The position numbers were made by a program, and so were the translations under genes. The notes beneath the pieces were generated by a model. It was given only the letters and a program-made list of their open reading frames with translations, made no database searches and was not told the origin of the DNA. DNA of 64,000 nucleotides from an uncultured Gemmatimonadales bacterium (GTDB lineage: Bacteria; Gemmatimonadota; Gemmatimonadetes; Gemmatimonadales; JACORV01): positions 3,046-67,045 of the forward strand of contig CAWIFL010000013.1 of assembly GCA_963835535.1 (NCBI GenBank), read 5' to 3'. This document shows, piece after piece, positions 3,335-47,696 of the stretch; position 1 is the stretch's first letter; every line of letters begins with the position of its first letter.

Positions 3335-5806
3335 TCAACGGGCGCCCGTCTCCAGGGGCCGCGCGGCCACGCGCTCCGGCCGGCCGCGGCGCGGCTGGGC
3401 CGCGACCGCCTCGGTCACCGTCGCCGGGAGCAGCGCCGCCTCCAGCACCTCGTCCACGGTCTCCACCAGCCGGATCTCCAACGCTTTCCGAACCTCCTCC
3501 GGGAGCTCCGCTACGTCGGCCGCGTTCCGCGCCGGCACCAGGACCAGCCGGATGCCGGCGCGCTCGGCCGCTATCAACTTCTCTTTGATGCCCCCCACCG
3601 GCAAGACATGGCCGCGCAGGGTGAGCTCCCCGGTCAGCGCCAGGTCGTGCCGCACCGGCCGGCCGGAGAAGAGCGAGGCGAGGGCCGTGGCGATCGCCAC
3701 GCCCGCCGACGGGCCGTCCTTGGGCACCGCGCCGGCCGGCACGTGGAGGTGCACGTCCACCTCCTTGAAGGCCGACGGGGGCACCCCGAGACCGGGCGCC
3801 TTGGCGCGGATCAGGCTCCACGCCGCCTCGGCGGATTCCTTCATCACGCCGCCGAGCTGGCCGGTGATGGTGAGGGTGCCCGTGCCGGCCATCTTCAGCG
3901 CCTCGATGAACAGGATGTCCCCGCCCGTGGGCGTCCACGCGAGCCCGGTGGAGATCCCCACCTCCGGCTCGCGGCCCGCGACCTCCGGAAGCACCTTCGG
4001 CGCTCCGAGCCGCTTGTGGACCGTGCGCGGCGTGACGTGCGCCCGCGCGGTCTTCCCGCTCACCACGTCCACCACGATCTGGCGCAGCACGTGCTGGATC
4101 TCGCGCTCGAGCTGCCGCACCCCGGCCTCGCGCGTGTACTCCGCGATGATGGACTGCAGCGCCGCCGCGCCCACGACCACGTGCCGCCCCTCGAGCCCCG
4201 TCTCCTTCAGCTGGCGGGGCACCAGATAGCGGCGCGCGATCTCCAGCTTCTCGCGCGGCGTGTACCCCGGCAGCTCCAGCACCTCCATCCGGTCGATCAG
4301 CGGCGGCGGCACGGTCGCCAGCGTGTTGGCGGTCGCGATGAACATCACGTCCCTGAGGCTGAACGGCACCTCGACGTAGTGGTCCACGAAGGTGTGGTTC
4401 TGCGCGGGGTCCAGGACCTCGAGCAGGGCCGACGTCGGGTCGCCCCGGAAATCGGCCCCGAGCTTGTCCACCTCGTCGAGCATGAAGACCGGGTTCCGCG
4501 TCGCCGCCCGCTGCAGCAGCTGGATGATGCGGCCGGGCAGCGCGCCGACGTAGGTGCGGCGATGCCCGCGGATCTCGGCCTCGTCGCGCATCCCGCCCAG
4601 CGCCATCCGCACGAACGAGCGCCCGAGCGCCTCGGCGATGCTCTGCCCCACGCTCGTCTTGCCCGTGCCCGGCGGCCCCACGAAGCAGAGGATGCTCCCG
4701 TGCGCCTCGGGGTTCAGGAACCGCACCGCGAGGTACTCGATGATGCGGTCCTTCACCTTCTCGAGGTCGAAGTGGTCCCTGTCCAGGATCTCGCGCGCGT
4801 GCTGGATGTCGAGCCGGTCCTCCGTCAGCACGCTCCACGGCAGCCCCGCCAGCACCTCGACGTAGGTGTGCGCCACCTGGTACTCGGCCGACTGCGGCGA
4901 CATCCGCCCCAGCCGCTCCAGCTCGCGCCGCCCCGCCTTGAGCGCTTCCTCCGAGGGCTTCGCCGCCTCGAGCTTCTTGAGCAGCTCGCCGGCCTCCCCC
5001 TCGGGCCCGCCGTCGCCCAGCTCCTCCTGGATGATCTTCAGCTGCTCGCGCAGCACGTACTCCCGCTGGTGCTCGTCGAGGCGCGTCTTGACCTTCTCGG
5101 AGATCTGCGAGCCGACCTCCAGGACCCGCAGCTCCTGGCCGATCAGCGCGGAGAGGCGCTCGAGCCGCGCCGCGACATCCCCGGTGCCGAGCAGCTCGGC
5201 CTTCGCCTCCACCGCCAGGTCGATGTTCGCCGCGACGAAGTCCGCCAGCTTGCCCGGATCGGTGATCCCGTCGAGCACCTCCCGCAGCTCCCCGGACAGG
5301 TTCGGCGTCATTTCGATGACCTTCTCCATCTCCGCGGTCACCGAACGCCGCAGCGCCTCGGTGCGGAGCGGGTCCGCCACCGTGCTCGCGATGCCCTCGA
5401 AGCGCGCGCTCAGTCCGTCCTCGCCGCTCGCCTGCACGTCCAGCAGCCGCACCCGGTCCATCCCCTGCACCAGCATCCGGAGCGTGCCGTCCCCCAGCCG
5501 GAGCAGCCGCACCACGGTGCTCAGGGTGGCCGCGTCGTAGAGCGCGTCGGGGGCGGCGGTGTCGAGCACGCCCTGCGGCAGCTCCTCGCCCTGCGTCCGG
5601 ACCACGCCGAGCAGCAGGTGCTTGTGCGTCTCCACGATCCGGTTCACCGCCGCGACCAGCTGCGGCGTGGTGACGGAGACGGGCACGACGACGTGCGGGA
5701 AGACGACCAGCTGCGACAGCGCCAGCACGGGGAGGCGCTCGGGAAGGCCCGGGTCCGTCGCGGGGGCGCCGGGGGGTGCGGCGGCGCTCACGGGCGGCCC
5801 GCTCAC
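3335..5806 (-). CDS. lon: ATP-dependent endopeptidase Lon (LonA type)
   Basis: ORF 3335..6127(-). LON N-domain (LPVLALSQLVVFPH), Walker A (GPPGTGKTS) and protease domain with PKDGPSAG are present. The true start is probably GTG 5806 (GTGA overlap with the hsp20 stop) or GTG 5791. The 107 upstream codons of the track ORF overlap hsp20 and are Arg-rich junk. Confidence 0.95.
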   Translation of the reverse strand: MSGPPVSAAAPPGAPATDPGLPERLPVLALSQLVVFPHVVVPVSVTTPQLVAAVNRIVETHKHLLLGVVRTQGEELPQGVLDTAAPDALYDAATLSTVVRLLRLGDGTLRMLVQGMDRVRLLDVQASGEDGLSARFEGIASTVADPLRTEALRRSVTAEMEKVIEMTPNLSGELREVLDGITDPGKLADFVAANIDLAVEAKAELLGTGDVAARLERLSALIGQELRVLEVGSQISEKVKTRLDEHQREYVLREQLKIIQEELGDGGPEGEAGELLKKLEAAKPSEEALKAGRRELERLGRMSPQSAEYQVAHTYVEVLAGLPWSVLTEDRLDIQHAREILDRDHFDLEKVKDRIIEYLAVRFLNPEAHGSILCFVGPPGTGKTSVGQSIAEALGRSFVRMALGGMRDEAEIRGHRRTYVGALPGRIIQLLQRAATRNPVFMLDEVDKLGADFRGDPTSALLEVLDPAQNHTFVDHYVEVPFSLRDVMFIATANTLATVPPPLIDRMEVLELPGYTPREKLEIARRYLVPRQLKETGLEGRHVVVGAAALQSIIAEYTREAGVRQLEREIQHVLRQIVVDVVSGKTARAHVTPRTVHKRLGAPKVLPEVAGREPEVGISTGLAWTPTGGDILFIEALKMAGTGTLTITGQLGGVMKESAEAAWSLIRAKAPGLGVPPSAFKEVDVHLHVPAGAVPKDGPSAGVAIATALASLFSGRPVRHDLALTGELTLRGHVLPVGGIKEKLIAAERAGIRLVLVPARNAADVAELPEEVRKALEIRLVETVDEVLEAALLPATVTEAVAAQPRRGRPERVAARPLETGAR

Positions 5807-10437: not shown

Positions 10438-11297
10438 CGGCCCGCCGGAGCGGCGGCGTAGTCGTAGAAGCCGCGGCCCGTCTTCCGTCCGAGCGCTCCC
10501 GCGGCCACCATCCGCTTGAGGAGCGGGCAGGGCCGGTACTTGTCGTCCCCCAGCCCGCGCTGCAGCACCTCGAGGATGTTGAGGCAGACGTCGAGCCCGA
10601 TCAGGTCGGCCAGGGCGAGCGGGCCGAGCGGATGGTTCATGCCGAGCTTCATCACCGTGTCGATGGACTCGGCGGTCGCCACGCCCTCCATCAGGCAGAA
10701 CACCGCTTCGTTGATCATCGGCATCAGGACGCGGTTGGACACGAAGCCCGGGTAATCGTTGACCTCGACCGGCGTCTTGCCCAGCTCCCGCGCGATCGCC
10801 ATCACGCGGCCCGCCGTGTCCTGGCTTGTCTCCTGGCCGCGGATCACCTCGACCAGCGCCATCACCGGCACCGGGTTCATGAAGTGCATCCCGATCACGC
10901 GGTCCGGCCGGCGCGTCTGCGCGGCCAGCGCCGTGATCGAGATGGAGCTGGTGTTGCTCGCGAGGATCGCCGCGGGCGGGAGGCACCGGTCGAGCTCGGC
11001 GAACAGCGGGAACTTGACCGCCTCGCTCTCGAACGCGGCCTCGACCGCCAGCTCGGCGCCGCCGGCCGCAGCCAGATCCGTGGCGGGATGCAGGCGGGCC
11101 AGCGCCGCGTCGCGCTCCGGGGCGGTGAGGGTGCCCTTCTTCAGCTGGCGCTCGAGGTTGGCGCGGATCGCCGCGACGCCCTTCGCGAGCGCGGCCTCGG
11201 CCACGTCCACGAGCGCGACGTCCCAGCCGTGCTGCGCGAAGACGTGCGCGATCCCGTTCCCCATCGTGCCGGCGCCCACGACCGCGACCTTCGCCAT
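10434..11297 (-). CDS. hbd: 3-hydroxybutyryl-CoA dehydrogenase
   Basis: ORF 10434..11297(-), 287 aa. Motifs: [51 protein letters not shown]. Confidence 0.9.
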
Positions 11298-11330
11298 CCG
11301 CTCACGCCCTCCCGAAAACGCAGCGCGCGC

Positions 11331-11908
11331 TCAGCGGAGCGCGCGCGTCAGGGGCAAGGTGCGGTGCAGGACCAGCGCCGCCAGACCGACCTTCACGGCG
11401 TCCTCCAGCAGGAACGGAAGCGAACCCGCGGCGAACGCCACAGGCGCGCTGCCGGTCATGACCGCCAGCTGGGCCAGCCCCCCGGCGTGCACCGCGATCA
11501 TCCCGAGCAGCGGGCCTCCGACCAGCCCCGCCCACCCCGGCCGGCGCGCGACGACGAACCCGACGAGCGCGGCGGCGAACGGGTACGCGAGCAGGTACCC
11601 ACCGGTCGGGCCGAAGAGCCGCGCCACGCCCGGGGCGCCGTACGGCGTGAACACCGGCAGCCCCGCCGCGCCGAGCAGCAGATAGAAGACGAGGCTCGCG
11701 GCGCCGCGGCGCGCGCCGAGCAGGCCGCCCACCAGGAGCACCGCGAGCGCCTGCAGCGTGACGGGCACCGGCGTGCCGGGGAGCGGCACCGCGACCTGGG
11801 AGGCGAGCGCGACGGCGAGCGCCCCCGCGGCGACGAGCGCGAGGTCGAGGGTGCGGCTCCGGCCGGCTGCGACCGGGGGGGGGCGGCGGTGGACGTGGCC
11901 TGGGTCAT
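11331..11908 (-). CDS. bioY: biotin transporter BioY; body intact but out of frame with the only well-placed start codon (C9 tract)
   Basis: ORF 11331..11999(-) carries the BioY core ([31 protein letters not shown]..). ATG 11908 forms an ATGA overlap with the thiolase stop but is in another frame. One extra C in the 9-C run (11875-11883) would join the two frames. The body frame has no canonical start before the first TM helix unless ATG 11999 is used, which lies 95 nt inside the thiolase gene. Confidence 0.75.
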
Positions 11909-18399: not shown

Positions 18400-19775
18400 G
18401 CTTCGCGCTCGCGGCGTTCGTCGCGTACTGCGGCTGCGCGTCCACCGGCGACCCGCCGGGCGGTCCTCCGCGCGCCACGCCGCCCGTCCTCCTCGCCAGC
18501 GTGCCCGAGTCCGGCGCCGTGCTCGCCGTGCCGCCGCGTCACGTCGAGCTGAGGTTCGACGAGGTCATCGGCGAGCGCATCGCCGCGCCGCAGCCCACCC
18601 TCGCGGGCGCGGTGCTCGTTTCGCCCGCCACGGGGCCCGTGAGCGTGGACTGGCACCGCAATCACATCACCATCTCGATCAAGGGCGGGTTCCGCCCGCA
18701 GCGCATCTACCGTGTGGAGCTGCTTCCCGTCGTCGTGGACCTCCACCAGAACAGGATGAAAAAGGCCCGGACCATCGTCTTCTCGACCGGCCCGGCGATC
18801 CCCTCGGCGACCCTCGCCGGCACCGTCGTGGACTGGACGGGTGGTCGCGCGGCGAACGGCGCGCTGGTCCAGGCCATGCTGCTGCCCGACTCCCTCCCCT
18901 ATCTCGCGCTGGCCGATTCGGTGGGGAATTTCTCCCTCCGCGCGATGCCGCCCGGCGACTACCTGGTGTACGGCGTCCTCGACCAGAACAACAACCGGCG
19001 CCGGGACCCGCGCGAGGCGTTCGACACCGCGCGCGTCGCGCTCACCGACTCGGCGCTGGTCGGGCTGTACGCGTTCACCCACGACACGATCGGGCCGCGG
19101 ATCAGGTCGGCGGATCCGGTGGACAGCATCACCGTGCGCATCACGTTCGACCGCCCCGTGAGTCCCGCCGTGGCCGTGGACACCTCGATGGTGCACGTGA
19201 GCCCGCTGGCCGATACGACGCAGACGGTCGCGCTGCTCACGGTGCTCACGACGGCCGCGTACGACAGCGCCGCCAAGATCGAAGCGGCCGCCAGGGCCGC
19301 CGCGCAGGCGGCGAGGGACAGCGCGACCCGGGCCGCGGCGGCGGCGCGCGACACCTCCCACCGCGCGGCCGCTCCACAGCCCGCGGCCGCGCGGCCGCCG
19401 GTCCGGCCACCGCCGCTGGGCGCGCTGCCGCGGCACGACTCGCTGCCCGCGGCGCGACACGACACCAGCCGCGCGACGAAGATGCTGGCCGAGCGCCCCG
19501 CCCCCAGCGACACGCGGGTCGTGCGCTTCGCCGCCCCGCTGGAGGCCGGCGTTCGATACGCGATCACGACCGCGAACGTGGTGGGGCTCACCGGAGTCAA
19601 GTCGACCCAGGGCCGCACCACCTTCACGGTGCCGCGGCCGCGGCCCACGCGGCCCGCCGCGGACTCCACGCGCCGTGCCCCGACCGACACCGCCGCCGCG
19701 GGCCGCGCGCAACCCGACACGGTCGCCGCGCGCCGCGACACCGTGCCGGCTCCCCTTCCGGTCAAACCACGGTGA
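18342..19775 (+). CDS. secreted/lipoprotein-like protein with Ig-like (SbsA/Big_5-like) N-domain and Ala/Pro-rich C-terminal half
   Basis: Tail of ORF 16236..19775(+). GTG 18342 is preceded by AAGGAG (18331-36, 5-nt spacer). The signal-like N-terminus is MDGQAGGARLQARRARLRVGFALAAFVAYCGC. The start overlaps the valS 3' end by 58 nt. Confidence 0.65.
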   Translation: MDGQAGGARLQARRARLRVGFALAAFVAYCGCASTGDPPGGPPRATPPVLLASVPESGAVLAVPPRHVELRFDEVIGERIAAPQPTLAGAVLVSPATGPVSVDWHRNHITISIKGGFRPQRIYRVELLPVVVDLHQNRMKKARTIVFSTGPAIPSATLAGTVVDWTGGRAANGALVQAMLLPDSLPYLALADSVGNFSLRAMPPGDYLVYGVLDQNNNRRRDPREAFDTARVALTDSALVGLYAFTHDTIGPRIRSADPVDSITVRITFDRPVSPAVAVDTSMVHVSPLADTTQTVALLTVLTTAAYDSAAKIEAAARAAAQAARDSATRAAAAARDTSHRAAAPQPAAARPPVRPPPLGALPRHDSLPAARHDTSRATKMLAERPAPSDTRVVRFAAPLEAGVRYAITTANVVGLTGVKSTQGRTTFTVPRPRPTRPAADSTRRAPTDTAAAGRAQPDTVAARRDTVPAPLPVKPR

Positions 19776-21187
19776 CCGACCCGCGCCGCCGGCTGCCGTC
19801 GGTGGACCGCCTGCTCAAGGAGAGCGCCGTCGCCCCCCTCGCCGCGGGCGTCCCGCGGAGCGCGCTCGTCCGCGCGGTGCGGAGCGCCTTGGGCGACGCG
19901 CGCGCGGCGCCGGAGAAAGCGCCCGCCGACGGCGCGGCCTGGGCCGCCGCCGTCCTCCGCGCGTTGGAGTCGGCGACGCGCCCGACGCTGCGCCGCGCGG
20001 TCAACGCCACGGGCGTGGTGTTGCACACCAACCTCGGTCGCGCCCCGTTGAGCGAGGCGGCGCTCGCCGCCGTCCGCGAGGCGGCGCGCGGCTACAGCAC
20101 GCTCGAGTACGACGCCGAACGCGGCCGGCGCGGCGACCGCCACGTGCACTGCGCCGGCCTGCTCACCGAGCTCACCGGCGCGCCGGCCGCGCTGATGGTG
20201 AACAACGCCGCCTCGGCGCTCCTCCTGGCCCTGGCGACCGCGGCGGCCGGCGGCGACGTGATCGTCTCGCGCGGCGAGCTGATCGAGATCGGCGGCGGGT
20301 TCCGGATCCCGGAGATCCTCGAGAAGAGCGGGGCGCGGCTCCTCGAGGTCGGCACGACCAACCGCACGAAGCTGGCCGACTACGAGAAAGCGCTCAAAGA
20401 CAGAGGCACAGAGGCACAGGGGCACAGGGGCACAGGCAAGCCAGCCGCGCGTCTGCCGGTCGCCATCCTCAAGGTCCATCGCTCGAACTTCCGGCAGGAG
20501 GGGTTCGTCGCCGAGGCGTCGCTGGAGGAGCTGGTGGCGCTCGGGCGGAAGCGCCGGGTGCCGGTGATCTACGACCTGGGCGGCGGACTGATGGTGGATC
20601 TCTCCGCCGACGGCCTCGACGGGGAGCCGCTGCTGCCGCGGGCCGCGAAGAGCGGCGCCACGGCCGTCGTCGCGTCGGGCGACAAGCTGCTGGGCGGCCC
20701 GCAGGCCGGCATCCTCCTCGGCACCGCGGCGTTCGTCGAGCGCTGCCGCACCAATCCGCTGGCGCGGGCGATCCGCGCCGACAAGCTCACGATCGCCGCC
20801 CTCTCGGCGACGCTGGCGCTCTACCGCGACACGGCCATGGCGCGGCGCGAGGTCCCGGTCCTGCGGATGCTGACGGAGCCGCGCTCGGTCCTGGTCGCGC
20901 GCGCCGAGCGCCTGGCCGCGACGCTGCCACCCGCGGCGCACGCCGTGGTGACGGCGACGCGCGCCGCGGTCGGCGGCGGGGCCTTCCCCGGCCTCGAGCT
21001 GGCCAGCGCCGGCGTCGCCCTCGCCCCGGAGGGGCTCTCCGCCGCGGGGCTGGCCGAGCGCCTCCGACTCGCCGCGACGCCGGTCGTCGCGCTGGTCACG
21101 GGCGGCCGCGTCGTCCTCGACGTGCGCACGATCGCGCCCGAGGACGAGCGGACGGTCGCAGACGCCGTCGCCGCGGCGCTTATCTAG
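19772..21187 (+). CDS. selA: L-seryl-tRNA(Sec) selenium transferase
   Basis: Tail of ORF 18155..21187(+) from VTDPRRRLPSVDRLL. Motifs: NATGVVLHTNLGRAPL, NNAASALLL, TTNRT, KVHRSNF, SGDKLLGGPQAG (PLP Lys). GTG 19772 overlaps the upstream stop (GTGA). Confidence 0.9.
   Translation: MTDPRRRLPSVDRLLKESAVAPLAAGVPRSALVRAVRSALGDARAAPEKAPADGAAWAAAVLRALESATRPTLRRAVNATGVVLHTNLGRAPLSEAALAAVREAARGYSTLEYDAERGRRGDRHVHCAGLLTELTGAPAALMVNNAASALLLALATAAAGGDVIVSRGELIEIGGGFRIPEILEKSGARLLEVGTTNRTKLADYEKALKDRGTEAQGHRGTGKPAARLPVAILKVHRSNFRQEGFVAEASLEELVALGRKRRVPVIYDLGGGLMVDLSADGLDGEPLLPRAAKSGATAVVASGDKLLGGPQAGILLGTAAFVERCRTNPLARAIRADKLTIAALSATLALYRDTAMARREVPVLRMLTEPRSVLVARAERLAATLPPAAHAVVTATRAAVGGGAFPGLELASAGVALAPEGLSAAGLAERLRLAATPVVALVTGGRVVLDVRTIAPEDERTVADAVAAALI
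20401..20438 (+). repeat. octanucleotide tandem array CAGAGGCA CAGAGGCA CAGGGGCA CAGGGGCA CAGGCA inside selA
   Basis: Read directly: 4.75 copies of an 8-nt unit, in frame, encoding ..DRGTEAQGHRGTGK... It is visibly more A-rich than the flanks. Confidence 0.9.
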
Positions 21188-24018: not shown

Positions 24019-24997
24019 CGCGCTCGTGGCGCTGGCGTGCGCGCTGATCGCGACGCCGGCCGCCGCTCAGTCGCCCTCCGCCGGCCCGCCGCTCGATTCC
24101 CTGGTCGTCCGGCTCGCGAACATGAGTGCCGTCACCGGCCTCGAGGACGCGATGGCCGAGGAGCTCGCCGCGGCGCTGCCCGGCGCGGTGACGGACGCCG
24201 CCGGGAACGTGCTCGCGATCCGCGGCAGCGGCGACCCGACCCGGGTCGCGCTCTGCCCGATGGACGAGATCGGCTACGTGGTCGGCGCCGTCACGCCGGA
24301 GGGCTATCTGACCCTGCGCCGCGTGGGCGCGACCTTCATGGGCCCGCTGTACGACCAGTTCCTCGAGGGCCAGCGCGTCACCGTGTTCGGCAGCCGCGGC
24401 CCGCTCCCCGGCGTCGTGGGCGTGCGCTCGATCCACCTGACGCGCGGGCGCCCGTCCGCGGCCGACGAGCCGTTCAATCTCGACAACGCGTACGTGGACG
24501 TGGGCGCGACCTCGGCGGCGGGCGTCGAGGCCCTCGGCGTGGGCCTGCTCGCGCCGGTCACGCGCGCCAAGCGGGCACACCGCTACGGCACCGACCTCGT
24601 CGCCGCGCTCGACGTTTCGGCCCGCGCCTCCTGCGCCGCCCTGCTCGACGCGGTCCTGCGCCTCCCCGCGGGCGGCGGCCGCGGCACCGCCGTGGCCGCG
24701 TTCACGCGCCGGCGGAACCTCCGGTGGGACGGCGGCTCGTTCGTGGTGATCTCCCGCGCGCAGGGAGCGGCAGCCTCCGACGTCGTCCTGCTCGGCGAGA
24801 CCGCCGCGGCCGACTCCCTCGGTGCGGGCGCGGTCGTGACCGGGGGCGACTCGCTCCCCGCCGCGCAGGGCTTCCAGGCCGCGACCGCCTGGAGCCTGCC
24901 CACCCGCTACGCCCGCACGCCGGTCGAGACCGTGTCACTCAAGGACGTCGCGGTCCTCGCGGACAGGCTCGTGGCGTTCCTGGGAGGGCGGCCATGA
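23999..24997 (+). CDS. secreted M42-peptidase-like paralog, apparently catalytically degenerate
   Basis: ORF 23999..24997(+). Signal peptide: MRSRPCSALVALACALIATPAAAQ. The fold-level pattern resembles the next gene, but the metal-ligand boxes are altered (ALCPMDEIG instead of AH.DEIG; no EE box). Confidence 0.65.
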   Translation: MRSRPCSALVALACALIATPAAAQSPSAGPPLDSLVVRLANMSAVTGLEDAMAEELAAALPGAVTDAAGNVLAIRGSGDPTRVALCPMDEIGYVVGAVTPEGYLTLRRVGATFMGPLYDQFLEGQRVTVFGSRGPLPGVVGVRSIHLTRGRPSAADEPFNLDNAYVDVGATSAAGVEALGVGLLAPVTRAKRAHRYGTDLVAALDVSARASCAALLDAVLRLPAGGGRGTAVAAFTRRRNLRWDGGSFVVISRAQGAAASDVVLLGETAAADSLGAGAVVTGGDSLPAAQGFQAATAWSLPTRYARTPVETVSLKDVAVLADRLVAFLGGRP

Positions 24998-26121
24998 CGC
25001 ACGGACGCGCGGACGCACGGACGCACGGCGCGTGGGTGGCCGCCGCCGTCCTCGTGGCGTGCCTGACGCCCGGCGCGGCGCCCGCCCAGCAGCCGATCGG
25101 CCTCGGCGAGGCGCGCGACATCGTGTCGCGCCTGGTCGAGACCTACGGCGTCTCCGGCCACGAAGGCCCGGTGCGCGAGGCCGTCATCAAGCTCCTGCCG
25201 GCGTGGGCGAATCCGACCATCGATTCCGCGGGGAACATCCTGGTCCGTGCCGGCGCGGGCGACCCGCTCACCGTCTACGTCGCGCACCTCGACGAGATCG
25301 GCTTCGCCGTCACGGCGATCCGGGAGAACGGGCAGCTGGAGCTGAGGCAGCTGGGCGGGTTCTTCCCCTCCCTGTTCGAGGCGGAGCCGGCGCTCGTGCA
25401 CACGGCGAACGGGATCGTGCCGGCCGTCTTCATGCCGCGCGACAGCGTCGGCCGCTCACCCGCGCGGAACCCCGGCGCCCTGCGCGCCGATCCCGGCACG
25501 GGGAGCCGCGCCGCCACCGAAGCGCTGGGCATCAGGGTCGGCGACGCGGTGACGATGCCGAAGTCCTTCGCCGGCCTCGCGGGGACGCGCGCCACCGGGC
25601 GCTCGTTCGACGACCGGGTCGGCTCGACCGCGCTGCTCCTCGCCGTGCGGCACCTCGACCCGCGGCGGCTCCGGCACGCGGTGCTGTTCGTCTGGTCCAC
25701 CCGGGAGGAAGTGGGGCTCGACGGCGCCCGGTTCGTCGCGGAGCACGTGGGGACGTCCGAGCATCCGGCGCGCGTGTACGCCATCGACACCTTCGTCTCC
25801 TCCGACGCGCCGCTGGAGATCAAGACCTTCGCCGACGCGCCGCTGGGCGGCGGCGCCGTGGTCCGGGCGGTGGACAACAGCTCGGTGACGCCGCCCGCGC
25901 TGGTGGACTCGCTGCTGGCGCTGGCGCGCGCGCGGCACATCCCGCTGGTCGCGGGCACGACCAACGGCGGGAACGACGGCTCGACCTTCACGCGCTTCGG
26001 CGTGCCCGACGTGGGGCTCGGGTGGCCGCTGCGCTACGCCCATTCGCCGGCGGAAGTGATCGATCTCCGGGACCTGGTCTCGCTCGCCGACGTCATCCAA
26101 CTCACTGCGGAGCGATGGTAA
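24994..26121 (+). CDS. M42 family metallopeptidase (glutamyl aminopeptidase/endoglucanase-like) with signal peptide
   Basis: Tail of ORF 24037..26121(+) from MTHGRADARTHGAWVAAAVLVACL. Motifs: VAHLDEIGF, SFDDRVG, STREEVGLDGA, YAHSP. ATG 24994 overlaps the upstream stop (ATGA). Confidence 0.85.
   Translation: MTHGRADARTHGAWVAAAVLVACLTPGAAPAQQPIGLGEARDIVSRLVETYGVSGHEGPVREAVIKLLPAWANPTIDSAGNILVRAGAGDPLTVYVAHLDEIGFAVTAIRENGQLELRQLGGFFPSLFEAEPALVHTANGIVPAVFMPRDSVGRSPARNPGALRADPGTGSRAATEALGIRVGDAVTMPKSFAGLAGTRATGRSFDDRVGSTALLLAVRHLDPRRLRHAVLFVWSTREEVGLDGARFVAEHVGTSEHPARVYAIDTFVSSDAPLEIKTFADAPLGGGAVVRAVDNSSVTPPALVDSLLALARARHIPLVAGTTNGGNDGSTFTRFGVPDVGLGWPLRYAHSPAEVIDLRDLVSLADVIQLTAERW
24997..25028 (+). 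repeat. octanucleotide tandem array ACGCACGG ACGCGCGG ACGCACGG ACGCACGG at codons 2-12 of the M42 gene
   Basis: Read directly from the sequence. It encodes THGRADARTHG. The same unit occurs at 45857-45888 on the other strand. Confidence 0.9.
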
Positions 26122-29554: not shown

Positions 29555-29638
29555 GGAGGGGTAGACCTAACTGGTAAGGCAGCGGTCTTGAAAACCGCCG
29601 GGCGCAAGCCCTTGGGGGTTCGAATCCCCCTCCCTCCG
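29555..29638 (+). tRNA. tRNA-Ser (anticodon UGA)
   Basis: Hand-folded. Acceptor GGAGGGG/TCCCTCC plus discriminator G. Anticodon stem GCGGT/ACCGC with loop CTTGAAA (U33, UGA). Long variable arm (CGGGCGCAAGCCCTTG). T-arm GGGGG-TTCGAAT-CCCCC. No encoded CCA. The D-stem has one mismatch. Confidence 0.85.
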
Positions 29639-35571: not shown

Positions 35572-35662
35572 GGAGAGGTGGCCGAGAGGCTGAAGGCGGC
35601 GGTTTGCTAAACCGTTTAACGGGCTAATACCTGTTACGAGGGTTCGAATCCCTCCCTCTCCG
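35572..35662 (+). tRNA. tRNA-Ser (anticodon GCU)
   Basis: Hand-folded. Acceptor GGAGAGG/CCTCTCC plus G. D-arm GTGGCCGAGAGGCTGAAGGC. Anticodon stem GCGGT/ACCGT with loop TTGCTAA. Long variable arm. T-arm GAGGG-TTCGAAT-CCCTC. Confidence 0.9.
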
Positions 35663-41995: not shown

Positions 41996-42153
41996 GGCGT
42001 GAGAGGTGAGACGTGAGAGGAACAAGTGAGAGGGTAAGATGCGTGAGAGGTGAGAAGGAGAGGCGTGAGAGGTCCCCTCTCACGCCCTTGCCCTCTCACG
42101 TCTCACGCCGTTCGCCCTCTCACTTCTCACCTGTCCCCCTCACTTCTCACGCC
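41996..42153. repeat. 158-nt imperfect palindrome built from GTGAGAGG (left arm) and CCTCTCAC (right arm) units
   Basis: GTGAGAGG is at 41999, 42013, 42026, 42043 and 42065. CCTCTCAC is at 42076, 42092 and 42116, plus shorter (T)TCTCAC/CCCTCAC copies out to 42150. The perfect central stem is GGCGTGAGAGG (42062-72), loop tcc, CCTCTCACGCC (42076-86). The outermost 10-11 nt are also complementary. Confidence 0.85.
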
Positions 42154-44653
42154 GTGAAGTTCGAAGAACTCCCTGATCTGCCTGATCAGTTCGTGCCACG
42201 GCCCCATGAACCTGCGTCGCGTCCGGCAGTCCCTCCAGGAGCGCGCCGCCGTACCGCTTCCGCAGCACCCGCGGGTCCAGCAGCACCACCACGCCGACGT
42301 CCGTCCGCGAGCGGATGAGCCGGCCGAAGCCCTGCTTGAGCTTCAGCGCGGCGAGCGGCACCAGGTACTCGTTGAACGGGTCGCCGCCGGACGCCTCGAT
42401 GGCCTCGCAGCGCGCGGCGGTGAGCGGCTCGGTCGGCACGCGGAACGGCAGCTTGGCGATCACCAGGGCGCGGAGCGCGAGCCCGGGCACGTCCACGCCT
42501 TCCCAGAACGAGTCCGTGCCCAGGAGGATGGCCGAGCCGGCGTCGCGGAAGCGGCGCAGCAGCTGGTCGCGCGGCGCGTCCCCCTGCACCAGCAGCGGCC
42601 AGCGGCCGGCGACGTCGGCGCGCGCGCCGAGCGCGGCGGCCGCCTGCCGCAGGGCGCGGTGGCTCGTGAAGAGGACGAACAGCCCGCCGTCGGAGGCGTG
42701 CGCGACGTCGGCCGCGATCTCGGCGACCCGCGCGCCGTGTCCCTCCGCGTCGTCCCGCGGCTCGGGCAGGTCGTCGGGCACGACGAACAGGCACTGGTCG
42801 CGGTAGTTGAAGGGCGACGGCAGCACCTCGCGCACCCCTTCGCGCGAGGGCGGCAGGTCGAGGCCGAGGCGCCGCGCGAGGAACTCGAAGGAGCCCCCGG
42901 TCGCCAGCGTCGCGCTGGTCAGGGTGATCGTCTCGACCCGGTCGAAGAGCATCTCCTTGAGGAGCGGCGCCAGCTCCAGCGGCACGGCGGCGAGCGCGAC
43001 GTGCGCGCCGCCGCGCCGCTCGATCCACCGCACCGTCGGGGGCAGGCCGGCCGGGGGCCGGAGCGTCGTGCGCACCGCGTCGCGCGCCGCCTCCAGACGG
43101 TTGGAGAGCCCGCGCAGCTCGCCCGCCAGCGACTGGATCCGGTCCGCCCCTTCCTCCGACCCCAGCCGCTCCACGAGGGCCACCACGGCCTCCCGGACCA
43201 GGCCGAGCGCGTAGCCGAAGTTGTCGAGCGCGTCGCCGAGCCCGCCGCCGGCGGCCGACCAGATGGGGTCGGCGGCGAACGCGTCGCCCAGGCGGACGAC
43301 GTTGTCGGCCTTGCCGGCCAGGTAGGCGTCGAGGATCCGGAAGAGCAGCTCGGCGCTGCGCCGCGCGTCCGCCAGCGCCGGGCGGAGGCGCGATTCGATC
43401 TGCTGCATGGCCGTCTCGCGCAGGGGCTCGTCCGCCTCGGCCGCGAGCGCGCCCCGCAGCGCCGGCAGGACGCCGCGGTTGCCACGCTCCAGCCGCGACA
43501 GCATCCGCTCCACGCCGCGCGACGTGGCCTGCATGCCGAGGTGCGTGGCGGCCGTGTCCTCCAGGTGGTGCGCCTCGTCGAGCACGAGGCGGCGATACGG
43601 CGGGAGCACCGCCGCCTCCTCGAAGTTCCCCTGGGCGCGCCGCACGGCGAGATCGCTCGCCAGGAGGTGGTGGTTCACCACCACCACGTCCGCGTCGGCG
43701 GCGCGGCGCCGCGCCTCGAAGACGAAGCACCCGTCGAAGTGCGGACAGCGCAGCCGGGTGCACAGGTCCGACTCGGCCGCGACCTCGTCCCACACCTCGG
43801 AGCTGGGCGTGAACGACAGGTCCGAGAGGCTGCCGTCCGACGTGTGCGCCGCCCACGACGCAATGGCTTCCAGCTCGTCGCGGCGGTCCGGCTCGAGGAG
43901 CGTGCCGACGCCCCGCCGCGCCTGCTCCAGTCGCGTCAGGCAGACGTAGTTGCGCCACCCCTTGAGCAGCGCGTAGCGCACCGGACGGTCCTCGGTGCCG
44001 AGGGCGCGGGCCAGCAGCGGGAGGTCCTTCCCGACCAGCTGCTCCTGCAGGTTGATGGTGTTCGTGGAGACGATGGTGCGCTCGCCGTTCACCACGGCCC
44101 ACCGGATCGCCGGCACGAGGTACGCGAAGCTCTTCCCGATCCCGGTCCCGGCCTCGAGCACCGCGATCGAGCCGTCGTTGTACGCGTCGGCGATGTAGGC
44201 CGCCATGTCGCGCTGGGCCTGGCGGTCCTCGTGCGCGCCCAGCTCGCGCGCCACGGGGCCCGCGGGCGCGAGGAGCCGCGCAACGGCGACGGCATCGAGC
44301 GGCTCGGTGCCGCGCGGCTTCGGCACCTCGACGACGACGTACAGCTCGTCGGCCCGGTTGTCCACGATCCCGAAGCCGATGCCGCCGTCGTGCAGGCGCA
44401 CCGCGACGTCGAGATCGGCGTTCGAGGGCTCGAGCAGCCCGCTCGGGTGGTTGTGGAGCACCATCTGCCCGCGGGACGCGACGCCCGGCAGGGCGAGCAC
44501 CGCGTCCACGGTACCGCGCGCGACGGGCTCCGCTCCCCGCACCGTGCCATCGGCGGCGACGTCGGCGACGAACGAAACCTCGCGGCCGCCGGCCTCCGCG
44601 ATCGCCGCGGCGATGGCGGAGCGGGCCGCGGCGCCGAGCCGCGCGGTGCTCAC
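42140..44653 (-). CDS. fusion protein: RadC-like JAB/MPN domain + DinG/Rad3-family ATP-dependent DNA helicase
   Basis: Tail of ORF 42140..44950(-) from VSTARLGAAARSAI. JAB motif: MVLHNHPSGLLEPSNADLDV. Helicase motifs: LEAGTGIGKS (Walker A), VLDEAHHL (DEAH), LTSATL, GTDSFWEGVD, QGFGRLIRS. GTG 44653 overlaps the upstream stop (GTGA). The last ~22 codons look frameshifted; the alternative end is 42127. Confidence 0.85.
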   Translation of the reverse strand: MSTARLGAAARSAIAAAIAEAGGREVSFVADVAADGTVRGAEPVARGTVDAVLALPGVASRGQMVLHNHPSGLLEPSNADLDVAVRLHDGGIGFGIVDNRADELYVVVEVPKPRGTEPLDAVAVARLLAPAGPVARELGAHEDRQAQRDMAAYIADAYNDGSIAVLEAGTGIGKSFAYLVPAIRWAVVNGERTIVSTNTINLQEQLVGKDLPLLARALGTEDRPVRYALLKGWRNYVCLTRLEQARRGVGTLLEPDRRDELEAIASWAAHTSDGSLSDLSFTPSSEVWDEVAAESDLCTRLRCPHFDGCFVFEARRRAADADVVVVNHHLLASDLAVRRAQGNFEEAAVLPPYRRLVLDEAHHLEDTAATHLGMQATSRGVERMLSRLERGNRGVLPALRGALAAEADEPLRETAMQQIESRLRPALADARRSAELLFRILDAYLAGKADNVVRLGDAFAADPIWSAAGGGLGDALDNFGYALGLVREAVVALVERLGSEEGADRIQSLAGELRGLSNRLEAARDAVRTTLRPPAGLPPTVRWIERRGGAHVALAAVPLELAPLLKEMLFDRVETITLTSATLATGGSFEFLARRLGLDLPPSREGVREVLPSPFNYRDQCLFVVPDDLPEPRDDAEGHGARVAEIAADVAHASDGGLFVLFTSHRALRQAAAALGARADVAGRWPLLVQGDAPRDQLLRRFRDAGSAILLGTDSFWEGVDVPGLALRALVIAKLPFRVPTEPLTAARCEAIEASGGDPFNEYLVPLAALKLKQGFGRLIRSRTDVGVVVLLDPRVLRKRYGGALLEGLPDATQVHGAVARTDQADQGVLRTSRREK

Positions 44654-45942
44654 GTCTTGAGTTCGCGCTTGCGCGCCGCGGGGAAGAGCACGTTGTTGAG
44701 AATGAGCCGGTAGCCCGGCGATGTCGGATGCAGCGACAGGTCGGTCGGCGGACTCCCGACCTGGTGCTGCGGGTCCTCGGGGTCGTGGCCGCCCAGGTAG
44801 GTCCAGGTCCCGCGGCCCAGGTCGCCGTGGATGTACTTCACCCACGGCGCGCCCGCCTCGTCGGCCAGGACGATGTCGGCGGCCTTGAGGGTGCGGCGCG
44901 TGAAGCTCGTGGTGATGCCGTAGAAGTCCGGGATCACCTGCCGGTGACACTGCACCAGCATCGTCGGCACGGGATCAATCTTGGCGCTGAAGTTGAACAG
45001 CGCGAACGCGCCGAGCGGCTGGCGCAGCCCCGGGTTGTTGACCTGGTGCCCGTCGATGTCCGAGAAGGCCGGGATCGCCGGGTTCTTCTCGAGGTGCGCG
45101 TCCTTGCACGCCAGCGCCTGGGTCCAGTCGAGCTTGGCGTCGGCGTCGGGATCCATCGGCGTGCCGTCGGCGAACTCCGCGGCGATGTCCACGTCGTGCG
45201 CGGCCAGGGCCAGCTCCAGGGTCTCGGTCGCCGTGCACATCGCGAACAGGAAGCCGCCGCCGTCCACGAAGGCGCGGATGCGGCGGGCCACCGCCTTCTT
45301 CAGGGCGGGCACGTCGTCGAACGAGAGGGTGCGCGCCACCGCCTGGTTCTCCTGCACCATGTCGGCGAGCCAGGCCGCGCCGGCGTAGGAGAGGTAGAAC
45401 TTGGAGTACTGGCCGGTGAAGTCCTCGTGGTGCAGATGCAGCCAGTCGAAGTCGGCCAGCCGCCCGCCCAGGACTTCGGTGTCCCAGACGCGCGTGAAGG
45501 GGATGTCGGCGTAGCGGAGCGCGAGCGTCACCGCGTCGTCCCAGGGCGGAGCGAAGGGCGGCGAGTAGATGGCGACGCGCGGCGCCTTCTCGAGCGGCAC
45601 GGCGTCCATGTTGCCCTGCTCGATGGTGCCCCGGATGTCGAGCACGTCGGCGTCCGACACGCTCAGGGCGGCGACGCCCGCCAGCGTGGCGGCGCGCCGC
45701 GCGATCCCGTCGTCCGGGATGAGGAACGACCCCCCGCGATAGTTGAGCAGCCACTCGGTGTGGCCGCCGCGCTTGACGGCGTCGTACGCGAGGCCGTAGG
45801 CCTTGAGGTGGTTGGTCTGCTCCTCGTCCATCGGCACGAGCAGGGACGCCGCACCTCCGTGCGTCCGTGCGTCCGTGCGTCGGTGCGTCCAGGCGAGGGC
45901 GCCCGCGCCGGCCATCGCGCCGAGGAAGTCCCGCCGCTTCAC
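44650..45942 (-). CDS. Tat-signal secreted protein of unknown function (GATase1-like fold suspected)
   Basis: Tail of ORF 44650..46989(-) from VKRRDFLGAMAGAGALAW (RRxFL twin-arginine motif). The conserved-looking body includes EEQTNHLKAYGLAYD..WLLNYRGGSF..GGFLFAMC. GTG 45942 overlaps the TPR gene stop (GTGA). The fold assignment is a recollection, not a search result. Confidence 0.65.
   Translation of the reverse strand: MKRRDFLGAMAGAGALAWTHRRTDARTHGGAASLLVPMDEEQTNHLKAYGLAYDAVKRGGHTEWLLNYRGGSFLIPDDGIARRAATLAGVAALSVSDADVLDIRGTIEQGNMDAVPLEKAPRVAIYSPPFAPPWDDAVTLALRYADIPFTRVWDTEVLGGRLADFDWLHLHHEDFTGQYSKFYLSYAGAAWLADMVQENQAVARTLSFDDVPALKKAVARRIRAFVDGGGFLFAMCTATETLELALAAHDVDIAAEFADGTPMDPDADAKLDWTQALACKDAHLEKNPAIPAFSDIDGHQVNNPGLRQPLGAFALFNFSAKIDPVPTMLVQCHRQVIPDFYGITTSFTRRTLKAADIVLADEAGAPWVKYIHGDLGRGTWTYLGGHDPEDPQHQVGSPPTDLSLHPTSPGYRLILNNVLFPAARKRELKT
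45857..45888 (-). repeat. octanucleotide tandem array; minus strand reads ACGCACCG ACGCACGG ACGCACGG ACGCACGG just after the Tat signal
   Basis: The plus strand reads CCGTGCGT CCGTGCGT CCGTGCGT CGGTGCGT. It encodes ..THRRTDARTHGG.. in the same phase as the array at 24997-25028. Confidence 0.9.
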
Positions 45943-47696
45943 GTGCCGGGCACCAGGCCGCGCACCCGATCGAGCTCGCGGCGCGCCTCGGGCACCAGCG
46001 CGCTCTCGGGGTGCGCCAGGATCATCGCTTCGAGGCGCCGGGCCGCCCCCTTCACGTCGCCGCGGCCGGCGAGGGCGCGGGCGAGCGCGAGCTCCGCCGC
46101 CGGCGCCGCGTTGGACGCGCCGAACCGGTCGGCCACCTCCAGCCACAGCGCCTCCGCGCCCGCCGAGTCGCGACCCGCGGCGGCGCACCGCGCCGCCCAG
46201 GCGAGCAGCGCGGGCTCCGCCTCCGACCCCGCAGCGGAATCGGCGAGGCCGCGCGCCACCGCGACCAGGGCGCGCGACGCCCCGAGCGAGTCGCCGCGCG
46301 CGGCGCGGAGCAGCGCGGCGCCCAGCTCGGGAAGCGTGTCCCGTCCCACCGCGTCGATCAGCGCCACCGTCTCGGCTCGCAACGGCGCCAGCGCGCGATC
46401 GCCCACCGACGCGCCGGCGAGGCGCAGCAGCCGCCGCGCCTCCGCCAGGCGCCCGCGATACAGGGCCACCCAGCCGCGCACCTCGTCCCCGGCGAGCGAC
46501 GAATCGCCGTCCACCGCGCGCTCCGCCCGCTCGAGGGCGCCACGCCGCAGCCACCCGCGCGCGATGACGCGGGCGAGCCGCTCCCGCTCCGTGCCGCTCA
46601 GACGCTCGAGCGCGGCGGCGAGCGTCCGAGAGGCCTCCTCCGGATTCCCTTCCCGCACCTGCAGCTCGACCGTCGCGGCCGCCGCCGCCGAGCGGGTCTC
46701 GCCGTCGGCAGACGTGTCCGCCGCCAGCGTCCGGAGCACCCGCCGCGCGGCAGCGGTGTCGCCGGCCGCGGCGAACGCCTGGGCGCTCTCGATCCTGGTC
46801 CGCCCCGCGTCCTCCGGCGGGAGCGCCGCCGCCAGCAGGTCGTAGGCCGCGCCCGCCGCGCGCTGCGCATCGGGCCCGCCGAGGGCTTGCGAGCGCTCGG
46901 CGAAGGTCCGCAGCGCGACGATCCGGAGCGAATCGGATGCGGGCAGCGCGTCCTTGAGCAGCGCCCAGGCCCGGCCCGGCTCGCTCCACCCGAGCAGCAG
47001 ATCCGCCGCCAGCTGCCGGCCGGTCGCCGCTTCCGGGCCCGACGCGGTCAGGGCGGCGATCACGGCGTCACGCGCCGCGGTCGGCGCGGGCCGGAGACTG
47101 AAGGACGCCGCATCCGCGTAGACGGCCTGCGCCCCCACCGCGGCCCTCCACTCCCGGGCGGCGCCCGCCCAGTCCCCCTGCTGCACGTCCACCTGCGCCA
47201 GCTCGGGCGCGAGGGCCGAAGGGTCGCCCAGCCGCTGCCGCGCGAGCAGGACCGCGTCCCGCGCGTCCTGCACGCGGCCGGCCCTGAAGGAGAGGCGCGC
47301 CCACTCCCGGTAGGGCGCCGGGCTGGCGGAGTCCACCGCCACCCACCGGGACAACGCCCTGGCCGCGAGCGAGTCCCGTCCCATCGCGCGCAGCGTGCGC
47401 AGCTCGACCGCGTAGGCGGTCGCCGCCGCAGGGTTCGCCGCGATCGCGCGCTCCGCGCAGGCCAGCACCGTGTCCCGCTGCGCCGGCTGGACGAATACGC
47501 GCTCCAGGCCGAGCAGCGCCGCGGCGTTGGTGGGCTCCTCCGCGAGCACCTGGCGGTACAGCGTTCCCGCTTCGTTCCACGCTCCCACCCCCTCGAGGTC
47601 CATCGCGCGGAGCAGGATCTCCTGCCCCGCCGCGTGCGCCGGCGCCACGGCCGCCAGCGCCAGCAGCACCAGGAGCGGACTAGCGACCCTGCGCAT
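45939..47696 (-). CDS. secreted TPR-like repeat protein
   Basis: ORF 45939..47696(-), 585 aa. Signal peptide: MRRVASPLLVLLALAAVAPAHA. The protein is Ala/Leu/Arg-rich with helical-repeat character throughout. The start overlaps the upstream gene end by 17 nt. Confidence 0.7.
   Translation of the reverse strand: MRRVASPLLVLLALAAVAPAHAAGQEILLRAMDLEGVGAWNEAGTLYRQVLAEEPTNAAALLGLERVFVQPAQRDTVLACAERAIAANPAAATAYAVELRTLRAMGRDSLAARALSRWVAVDSASPAPYREWARLSFRAGRVQDARDAVLLARQRLGDPSALAPELAQVDVQQGDWAGAAREWRAAVGAQAVYADAASFSLRPAPTAARDAVIAALTASGPEAATGRQLAADLLLGWSEPGRAWALLKDALPASDSLRIVALRTFAERSQALGGPDAQRAAGAAYDLLAAALPPEDAGRTRIESAQAFAAAGDTAAARRVLRTLAADTSADGETRSAAAAATVELQVREGNPEEASRTLAAALERLSGTERERLARVIARGWLRRGALERAERAVDGDSSLAGDEVRGWVALYRGRLAEARRLLRLAGASVGDRALAPLRAETVALIDAVGRDTLPELGAALLRAARGDSLGASRALVAVARGLADSAAGSEAEPALLAWAARCAAAGRDSAGAEALWLEVADRFGASNAAPAAELALARALAGRGDVKGAARRLEAMILAHPESALVPEARRELDRVRGLVPGT

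Follow-up and report, generated by a model that had tools for sequence, protein, structure and literature searches.

The stretch of DNA analysed here, which we call the window, comprises 64,000 nucleotides of contig CAWIFL010000013.1 from an uncultured Gemmatimonadales bacterium; its G+C content is about 73%, and its closest relatives are Gemmatimonadales metagenome-assembled genomes (MAGs) from peat. On its minus strand, a tandem array of an 8-nt unit lies in frame within the predicted signal peptide of a gene that we refer to as gene A. The following features make up the site:

44650..45942, minus strand: gene A, 430 aa, GTG start at 45942 and stop at 44650, putative exported protein of an uncharacterised family
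45832..45942, minus strand: predicted signal peptide of the twin-arginine translocation (Tat) type, codons 1-37 of gene A, with the GTG start, RRDFL at 45922-45936, a weak h-region GAMAGAGALAW and then the array
45857..45888, minus strand: octamer array of one ACGCACCG and three ACGCACGG, translated in frame as THRRTDARTH(G), in the probable c-region of the gene A signal peptide
45844..45856, minus strand: vestigial inverted (reverse-complement) arm AGGTGCGGCGTCC, 13 nt

Read on the minus strand, the array begins with ACGCACCG (45888..45881) and continues with ACGCACGG three times over (45880..45857). Tandem Repeats Finder (TRF), run on the window, delimited the array as 45856-45890 with period 8, 4.4 copies and 92% matches. 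The sequence, coordinates and copy number given in a first-pass annotation of this DNA were thereby confirmed, as was the occurrence of the same unit at 24997-25028. The array occupies codons 19-29 of gene A, whose N-terminus is VKRRDFLGAMAGAGALAW-THRRTDARTHGG-AASLLVPMDEEQTNHLKAYG; its peptide is placed between the twin-arginine motif RRDFL and SLLVPMD, about where the conserved mature part begins. Orthologues keep an N-terminal M-(K/R)-R-R-x-F-L and the body LLVPMD..Q.NHLKAYG, and VKRRDFLGAMAGAGALAW has the make-up of a Tat motif: across 25 orthologues R3 and R4 are invariant and F6 is nearly so. Judging from this motif, the gene A product would be exported by the Tat route and its signal peptide cleaved. 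Distant orthologues with Sec-type signals have AxAQ directly before (K/R)LLVPMD and, because their signals end there, the peptide encoded by the window array is probably the c-region of a Tat signal peptide that is cleaved off. Gene A has no sequence match in Pfam, NCBIfam or PDB. The family is very widespread (at least 8000 matches), and its members are labelled 'asparagine synthetase B' in some MAG records.

The 13 nt adjoining the array are a remnant of a second arm. Within this vestige, GGTGCG and GCGTCC complement CGCACC and GGACGC of the array; the pairing spans 10 nt at 90% complementarity and yields a weak local hairpin (fold z = -0.27 against shuffles). Full inverted arms stand at the same site in the alleles of L205/L227 and L218 (L numbers designate loci and P numbers proteins). 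The window array is a forward arm of four units followed by a reverse-arm vestige; it evolves by point mutation, and its length is fixed in the close relatives sampled.

The evidence for this fixed length comes from 12 window-type contigs of different metagenome samples (L003-L005, L209-L217), all of which, as consensus assemblies, have exactly four units (12/12). Point changes alone distinguish them: ACGCACTG in L213, GCGCACGG in L214, and T/C just past the array. Likewise, every full-length member of the 90% protein cluster has 430 aa, P0253 carrying one substitution in the repeat peptide. These data bear on whether the site is a phase-variable contingency locus, in which slippage by one 8-nt unit would frameshift gene A, stop export of its product and possibly affect the downstream helicase gene, whose GTGA coupling to gene A had been pointed out earlier and was confirmed. 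The unit is indeed not a multiple of three, a change of one unit in codons 19-29 shifts the frame, the host gene, which has the array at its 5′ end, encodes a putative exported protein, and a downstream in-frame ATG (M38) could yield a signal-less product. However, copy number does not vary among these close relatives, the tract is short at four copies, arrays of relatives decay by substitution, and arrays of this class are also found in SelA and in a helicase. Relatives of 393 aa (P0004, P0248, P0249) were considered as frameshifted array variants and rejected, their DNA being intact in frame; they are shorter because gene callers took the ATG (M38) over the GTG. The frameshift switching implied by the first-pass annotation was thus not seen; phase variation at the gene A array is not supported, and we regard it as very improbable.

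Between the RR motif and LLVPMD, gene A orthologues are hypervariable in sequence and length; between lineages the signal region shows 22-45/60 identical positions, against about 56/60 in the rest of the gene. A period-8 array is present in the signal region of 15 of the 33 RR-type orthologues, with differing units; examples of these units are TAAGGCGG/CTTCCCGC, CCGTCCGA, TCATTCCG, TGGACGGC, CCATCGTT and CACGACGC/GTCGTGAC. Among the relatives, the gene A site takes the following forms:

L208 and L125: decayed ACGCACGG array
L206 and L126: GGGCACGG x3
L205/L227: AGGCACGG x3, a spacer and (CCGTGCCT)x4, z = -3.5
L218: four forward and three inverted units, abutting
L207: array absent
window: four forward units and the reverse-arm vestige, with no significant fold

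With the segment so variable across orthologues, the repeat is a feature of the DNA and not a conserved peptide, as had been proposed. The first-pass annotation had named two observations that would speak against its account, an array of invariant length and a peptide conserved in distant orthologues through different nucleotides; the former was found and the latter was not. The same variability bears on selection acting on the protein, whereby an Arg-rich peptide would be kept as a basic, Sec-avoiding c-region in gene A (or as a positive n-region in gene B, described below) and repeats would offer a quick route to it. The encoded peptides are in fact basic and hydrophilic and lie in n- or c-regions of signal peptides, but many orthologues lack a peptide of this kind or carry unrelated sequences (PSFHHSVIPS, RRYGGMAV), pairs of reverse-complement arms make no sense for a protein, and arrays occur also in cytoplasmic proteins and in intergenic DNA. 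We find selection of this kind hardly credible as the explanation.

In several lineages the two arms bracket the codons of the hydrophobic core, for instance in gene A of L127 and in the DUF4159 gene of L128, and 9/33 gene A signal regions fold with z < -2 relative to shuffles (z -2.5 to -5.5). It may be asked whether such folds represent a functional RNA or DNA hairpin at the junction between gene A and the TPR-like gene upstream of it, the window copy being a degenerate one; proposed roles would be to tune translational coupling, to pause ribosomes on the signal sequence, or to stabilise or end transcripts. Arms flank h-region codons in L127, L133, L139, L140, L143, L148, L205 and L218, arm complementarity is retained while units differ between lineages, and similar hairpins stand after stop codons elsewhere. 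On the other hand, the window is not among the 9/33 orthologues with a significant fold, L207 lacks the array altogether, and template switching can make complementary arms without selection. No repeat-related Rfam family matched the window at gathering level, and six array loci searched at E <= 0.1 were likewise without a relevant match. All considered, a functional hairpin seems unlikely to us.

A further allele difference was found in L001/L002. They match the window at 99.5% identity, but not over a patch of some 300 nt surrounding the array (L001 ~330-640; window 45720-46000). Over this patch they agree fully (100%) with the L205 (SPRUCE_616-type) lineage, itself about 92% identical to the window elsewhere. 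Local hypermutation at the array, which was considered as an explanation, is rejected by this perfect match. We interpret the patch as recombination, an assembly chimera present in two assemblies being less likely.

The gene A array is one of three period-8 arrays in the window, two of which have a common unit. The others, with the gene that hosts the companion array (gene B), are:

24994-26121, plus strand: gene B, M42 peptidase
24997..25028, plus strand: companion array ACGCACGG ACGCGCGG ACGCACGG ACGCACGG, right after the ATG (24994) of gene B
20400..20436, plus strand: third octamer array of the same family, GGCACAGA/GGCACAGG (GGCACAGR), 4.6 copies, in a loop of SelA

The companion array encodes the basic n-region of the gene B signal peptide, which ends in a lipobox-like LVAC; the gene B ATG overlaps the stop of an upstream M42 paralogue (ATGA). 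No stable hairpin was found at the gene B array of the window (z = +1.23). As had been noted earlier, the two host genes are dissimilar outside the repeat: BLASTP aligned their proteins with 9/11 identities in the repeat-encoded peptide and gave no other similarity, and the flanks of the two arrays are unrelated. Their common reading phase, to which the first-pass annotation also pointed, is real but is no independent coincidence; the unit length of 8 has no common factor with the codon length of 3, and a sense-strand array therefore encodes one cyclic peptide, T-H-G-R-T-D-A-R, whichever frame is read. Aligned to Aquifex SelA 3W1H, the window protein has 14 extra residues in frame (query segment GTEAQGHRGTGKPAARLP), and the SelA array falls inside this insertion. 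SelA is a cytoplasmic enzyme, and its array is orthologous but decayed in L232, at about 4920-4990.

Many gene B orthologues begin with octamer-coded peptides right after the Met, for example MTHGRTDARTHG, MRHGGTGAQRHG, MKTDAQTRRRTDAQ and MKTELQSCRVAGWQG; some (P0131) come with an inverted arm, others have none. The earlier suggestion that the repeats belong to the 5′ ends of exported-protein genes therefore holds to the extent that they recur at the 5′ ends of genes A and B in many lineages, but it fails as a statement of specificity, given the arrays in the SelA loop, in the helicase loop of L128/L130 and in intergenic DNA. Independent acquisition was also suggested at first; a recent one is contradicted by the orthologous arrays at all three window sites in the lineage of about 92% identity.

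The finding that one repeat type occurs in unrelated genes of one genome stands, and it is a general property of the array class. Pairs of sites in the same locus have matching units (at most 1 mismatch) in 11/39 cases, compared with 41/757 between loci, and 0/2000 permutations reach 11. Contig k141_8963, of the L205-type lineage, carries both gene A and gene B; its gene B begins ATG AGGCACGG AGGCACGG GGGCACAG AGGCACGG, and its gene A also has AGGCACGG units. Thus ACGCACGG is at both genes in the window and AGGCACGG at both in k141_8963: position 2 of the unit changed in parallel (a C-to-G difference) at two loci separated by tens of kb. The SelA arrays are orthologous in the two lineages but consist of other unit variants. 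Unit sharing and parallel change argue against purely independent local slippage, although the covariation comes from two lineages with about three unit variants, for which the chance expectation is roughly 1 in 9.

A process of unit-specific spreading could account for this pattern. Arrays in unrelated genes would evolve together through copying between sites, ectopic conversion, or a lineage-specific factor or template, and the heptamer families known elsewhere are genome-specific too (PMC4692102, PMC4679880). In L132, one composite element made of a GCTAACC array and a CTCACCT array is found twice in opposite orientation (11283-11394 and 19047-19116), a duplication that suggests copying between sites. 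L015 and L026, which belong to one genome, have near-identical hairpins with a common loop and common flanks, and L086 of the same genome has a further AGGCACRG array. Against such spreading, the gene A and gene B arrays of the window lack common flanks, the SelA array is a different variant, and the covariation has the narrow base just described. Common ends or flanks beyond the core, by which copies of a mobile element would be recognised, are missing from the window copies, a result that applies to these copies only, given L015 and L026. We assign unit-specific spreading a low probability. A loose search of the window with 16-mers (at most 3 mismatches) returned 9 matches where 5 were expected and was uninformative.

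To place these arrays in context, we surveyed 844 kb, that is, the window and 80 metagenome loci carrying gene A homologues, counting non-redundant TRF arrays of score >=40 against an order-3 Markov null. There were 27 arrays of period 7 (0.6 in the null) and 35 of period 8 (1.7 in the null), an excess of 20-45 times, while periods 10, 11, 13, 14, 16 and 17 were at null level. The three period-8 arrays of the window compare with about 0.13 per 64 kb in the null. Density depends on lineage: the loci of the window's clade contain 19 per 100 kb (62 period-7/8 arrays in 323 kb), against 1.6 in loci of distant homologues. An array of the reverse-complement unit lies within 200 nt of 40/78 arrays, and an array with its inverted partner makes a hairpin whose arms are tandem repeats, as in L163 3374-3485, L147 6443-6545, L126 9528-9621, L015 and L026.

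Overall, arrays are located just past stops or at gene junctions and, within genes, in signal-peptide regions and protein loops; the two periods differ in this respect. Because our crude GC3-based gene finder fails below about 66% G+C, the location statistics cover 50 loci, in a sample biased towards gene A. Within that sample, 22/30 period-7 arrays are intergenic, 15/30 lie within 100 nt after a stop (2.5% in the background) and 0 are internal to coding sequences. Period-8 arrays frequently fall into the first 150 nt of a gene or into a loop, and most are not in intergenic DNA near an upstream stop. Stop codons occur in at least one orientation in 21/35 heptamer units. ACGCACGG, by comparison, is stop-free in all six frames and so can persist inside an open reading frame (ORF).

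In our assessment, the array at 45857-45888 is probably a tolerated long-unit simple sequence repeat (LSSR) with an 8-nt unit, the forward arm of a decaying repeat hairpin, residing in a removable signal peptide. LSSRs are head-to-tail repeats of 5-11-nt units beyond chance, numerous in their lineage, and here the 4.4 copies at 92% and the clade-wide abundance agree with both traits. Replication slippage or template switching with a register of 7-8 nt would both create such arrays and homogenise them, a notion that borrows the polymerase-footprint idea of Mrazek et al. 2007 as later papers summarise it. Coding DNA would then retain just those arrays that are stop-free in all frames, and within genes the net changes that survive would be of three units (24 nt). 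Persistence may be limited to sites that tolerate arbitrary hydrophilic residues, such as n- and c-regions of signal peptides and surface loops; in-frame insertions are found also in cytoplasmic proteins, namely SelA and the helicase loop. For gene A, the outcome would be a basic dodecapeptide in the probably cleaved part of the Tat signal peptide, so that the array would be near-neutral for the protein and not a switch.

Several points weigh against this account. Purely local slippage leaves two facts unexplained, the sharing of units within genomes and the parallel ACGCACGG/AGGCACGG difference at genes A and B. Array density in the gene A signal region exceeds that of intergenic DNA several-fold, which hints at persistence or selection there, and the strong hairpins in a quarter of the orthologues could be functional. 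Furthermore, minority length variants are invisible in consensus assemblies, and gene positions derive from the crude finder described above.

The arrays fit the LSSR class. In the account of Mrazek, Guo & Shah 2007 that is summarised in PMC4679880 and PMC4692102, LSSRs have units of 5-11 nt, heptamers are commonest and polymerase slippage is the proposed origin. Our arrays resemble them in their head-to-tail 7-8-nt units beyond chance and, as that summary has LSSRs abundant in only some free-living bacteria with large genomes, in their restricted occurrence. They depart from the mainly heptameric and mostly non-coding repeats summarised there: octamers are as common as heptamers, and many are in frame within coding sequence. 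Other distinguishing traits are that G-tracts are lacking, that one lineage has several units and that arrays often lie in frame in signal peptides. Our literature searches yielded no account of such arrays for Gemmatimonadetes/Gemmatimonadota or Acidobacteria. To our knowledge, Gemmatimonadota were not part of the Mrazek survey.

Among the closest parallels are the heptamers of Xanthomonas (GGGAATC) and Nostoc (GGGGA(C/T)T) described by Rehm et al. 2015, which are 89-93% intergenic in Xanthomonas and 28% within ORFs in Nostoc (PMC4692102). Their distance to the upstream ORF is ~28 nt, four units are the preferred number, each genome has 70-75 inverted pairs, and the repeats are transcribed; their sequence and length vary at conserved sites between close species (PMC4692102). 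The two systems have in common a genome-specific unit, about four units, convergent inverted pairs, variation in length and sequence at a conserved site among related lineages and, for period-7 arrays at least, a location within ~50 nt of stops. The Xanthomonas/Nostoc units, however, have G-tracts, can form G-quadruplexes and are under-represented in ORFs, and in our case, unlike theirs, one orthologous signal-peptide site carries arrays in many lineages. A G-quadruplex reading, which takes at least four G-tracts of at least three G, was dropped for our array, ACGCACGG having GG runs at most.

Stop codons confine intragenic copies of the TAACTGA repeats of marine Beggiatoaceae (MacGregor 2015) to protein termini (PMC4679880), and cyanobacterial short tandemly repeated repetitive (STRR) heptamers are reported from Calothrix in work cited in PMC4692102. 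Like both, our arrays are dispersed tandem repeats near gene starts and ends whose stop content limits entry into ORFs and whose copies inside genes fall in peripheral parts of the protein. TAACTGA is a single unit with stops in all frames, mostly upstream of starts, whereas our lineages have many units each, those in coding DNA being stop-free. Phase-variable simple sequence repeat loci, such as the Haemophilus influenzae tetranucleotide tracts outlined in PMC2651432 and PMC11868660, likewise have a non-triplet unit near the 5′ end of an exported-protein gene; our site differs from those outlines in its lack of copy-number polymorphism, its four copies, its decay by substitution and the occurrence of its class in housekeeping genes.

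Palindromic repeats tolerated in frame within genes are also known as Rickettsia palindromic elements (RPE), and species-specific hairpins after stop codons as repetitive extragenic palindromic sequences and bacterial interspersed mosaic elements (REP/BIME). Unlike RPE and REP, our arrays have neither a conserved consensus of 100-150 nt nor, in the window copies, common flanks, and their arms are tandem units of 7-8 nt.

It is also conceivable, though doubtful, that a mechanism specific to the unit is at work in Gemmatimonadales, and perhaps also in Acidobacteriota and others, by which 7-8-nt repeat hairpins at gene junctions are built, copied or read. If so, a templated or conversion-like process or a binding factor would make arrays in unrelated genes of one genome co-evolve, signal-peptide sites would keep their structure while their sequence turns over, and 45857-45888 would be a forward arm embedded in frame in a Tat signal peptide. 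We consider unit-specific spreading or homogenising the most interesting lead. For the question of how LSSRs arise and what they do in free-living bacteria, this lineage offers a dense and tractable set, with orthologous sites showing unit turnover, arm pairs around the hydrophobic core of signal peptides and an apparent parallel unit change at distant loci. Should the parallel change hold in more genomes, it would separate local slippage from copying, conversion or a trans-acting factor. For annotation, arrays of this kind create hypervariable N-termini rich in Arg, Gly and His and variable start calls (430 vs 393 aa), and they are not to be taken for phase-variation switches without population data.

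Gene A belongs to a conserved row that reads, in L205, DUF4159 gene, 1107-aa gene, TPR gene, gene A and helicase. In and beside this row we recorded:

45939..47696, minus strand: TPR-like gene, 585 aa, upstream of gene A, its TGA stop overlapping the gene A GTG start (GTGA)
42140..44653, minus strand: downstream helicase, DinG/YoaA-type with a RadC-like N-terminus, its GTG start overlapping the gene A TGA stop (GTGA)
41999..42155: intergenic heptamer element just past the helicase stop, (GTGAGAG)~10 and then inverted CTCTCAC copies
repeat arms of the DUF4159 gene: L128 743-853; L134 4304-4395; L135 4473-4561; L143 2561-2681; L163 4387-4418

In the DUF4159 gene, forward and inverted arms stand around the N-terminal hydrophobic segment, with units that differ per genome. 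The N-terminal segment of the window helicase is RadC/JAB-like, with MVLHNHPSG, and its length varies; alignments to L206, L207 and L125 lose ~60-100 nt right after the gene A stop. In L128 (9340-9370) and L130 (3916-3952), the array (CCGTCCGG)x4, encoding RPSGRPAVGPSV, lies in an internal helicase loop, where the window protein has RPPAGLPPTV. The GTGAGAG unit occurs also at L125 5116-5290 and at three sites of L132. Two tRNA genes (29555-29638 and 35572-35662) are the sole Rfam matches at gathering level in the window.

A pattern scan of GTDB genomes for GCACRG-NN x3, whose taxon frequencies are not quantitative, gave at least 119 loci. Among the matches listed are at least 13 Gemmatimonadales loci with octamer arrays and many other phyla, with hosts such as Streptomyces, Acidobacteriota, Planctomycetota, Verrucomicrobiota, Lentisphaerota and Sorangium. 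Tandem GGCAC(A/G)GA arrays appear, among the matches listed (L006-L124), in very distant phyla of G+C 0.33-0.73, including Pirellulales, Victivallis, Sorangium, Burkholderiaceae and Cytophagales. The GCACRG-NN arrays reach at least 17 units in Streptomyces and Nocardia, again among the matches listed.

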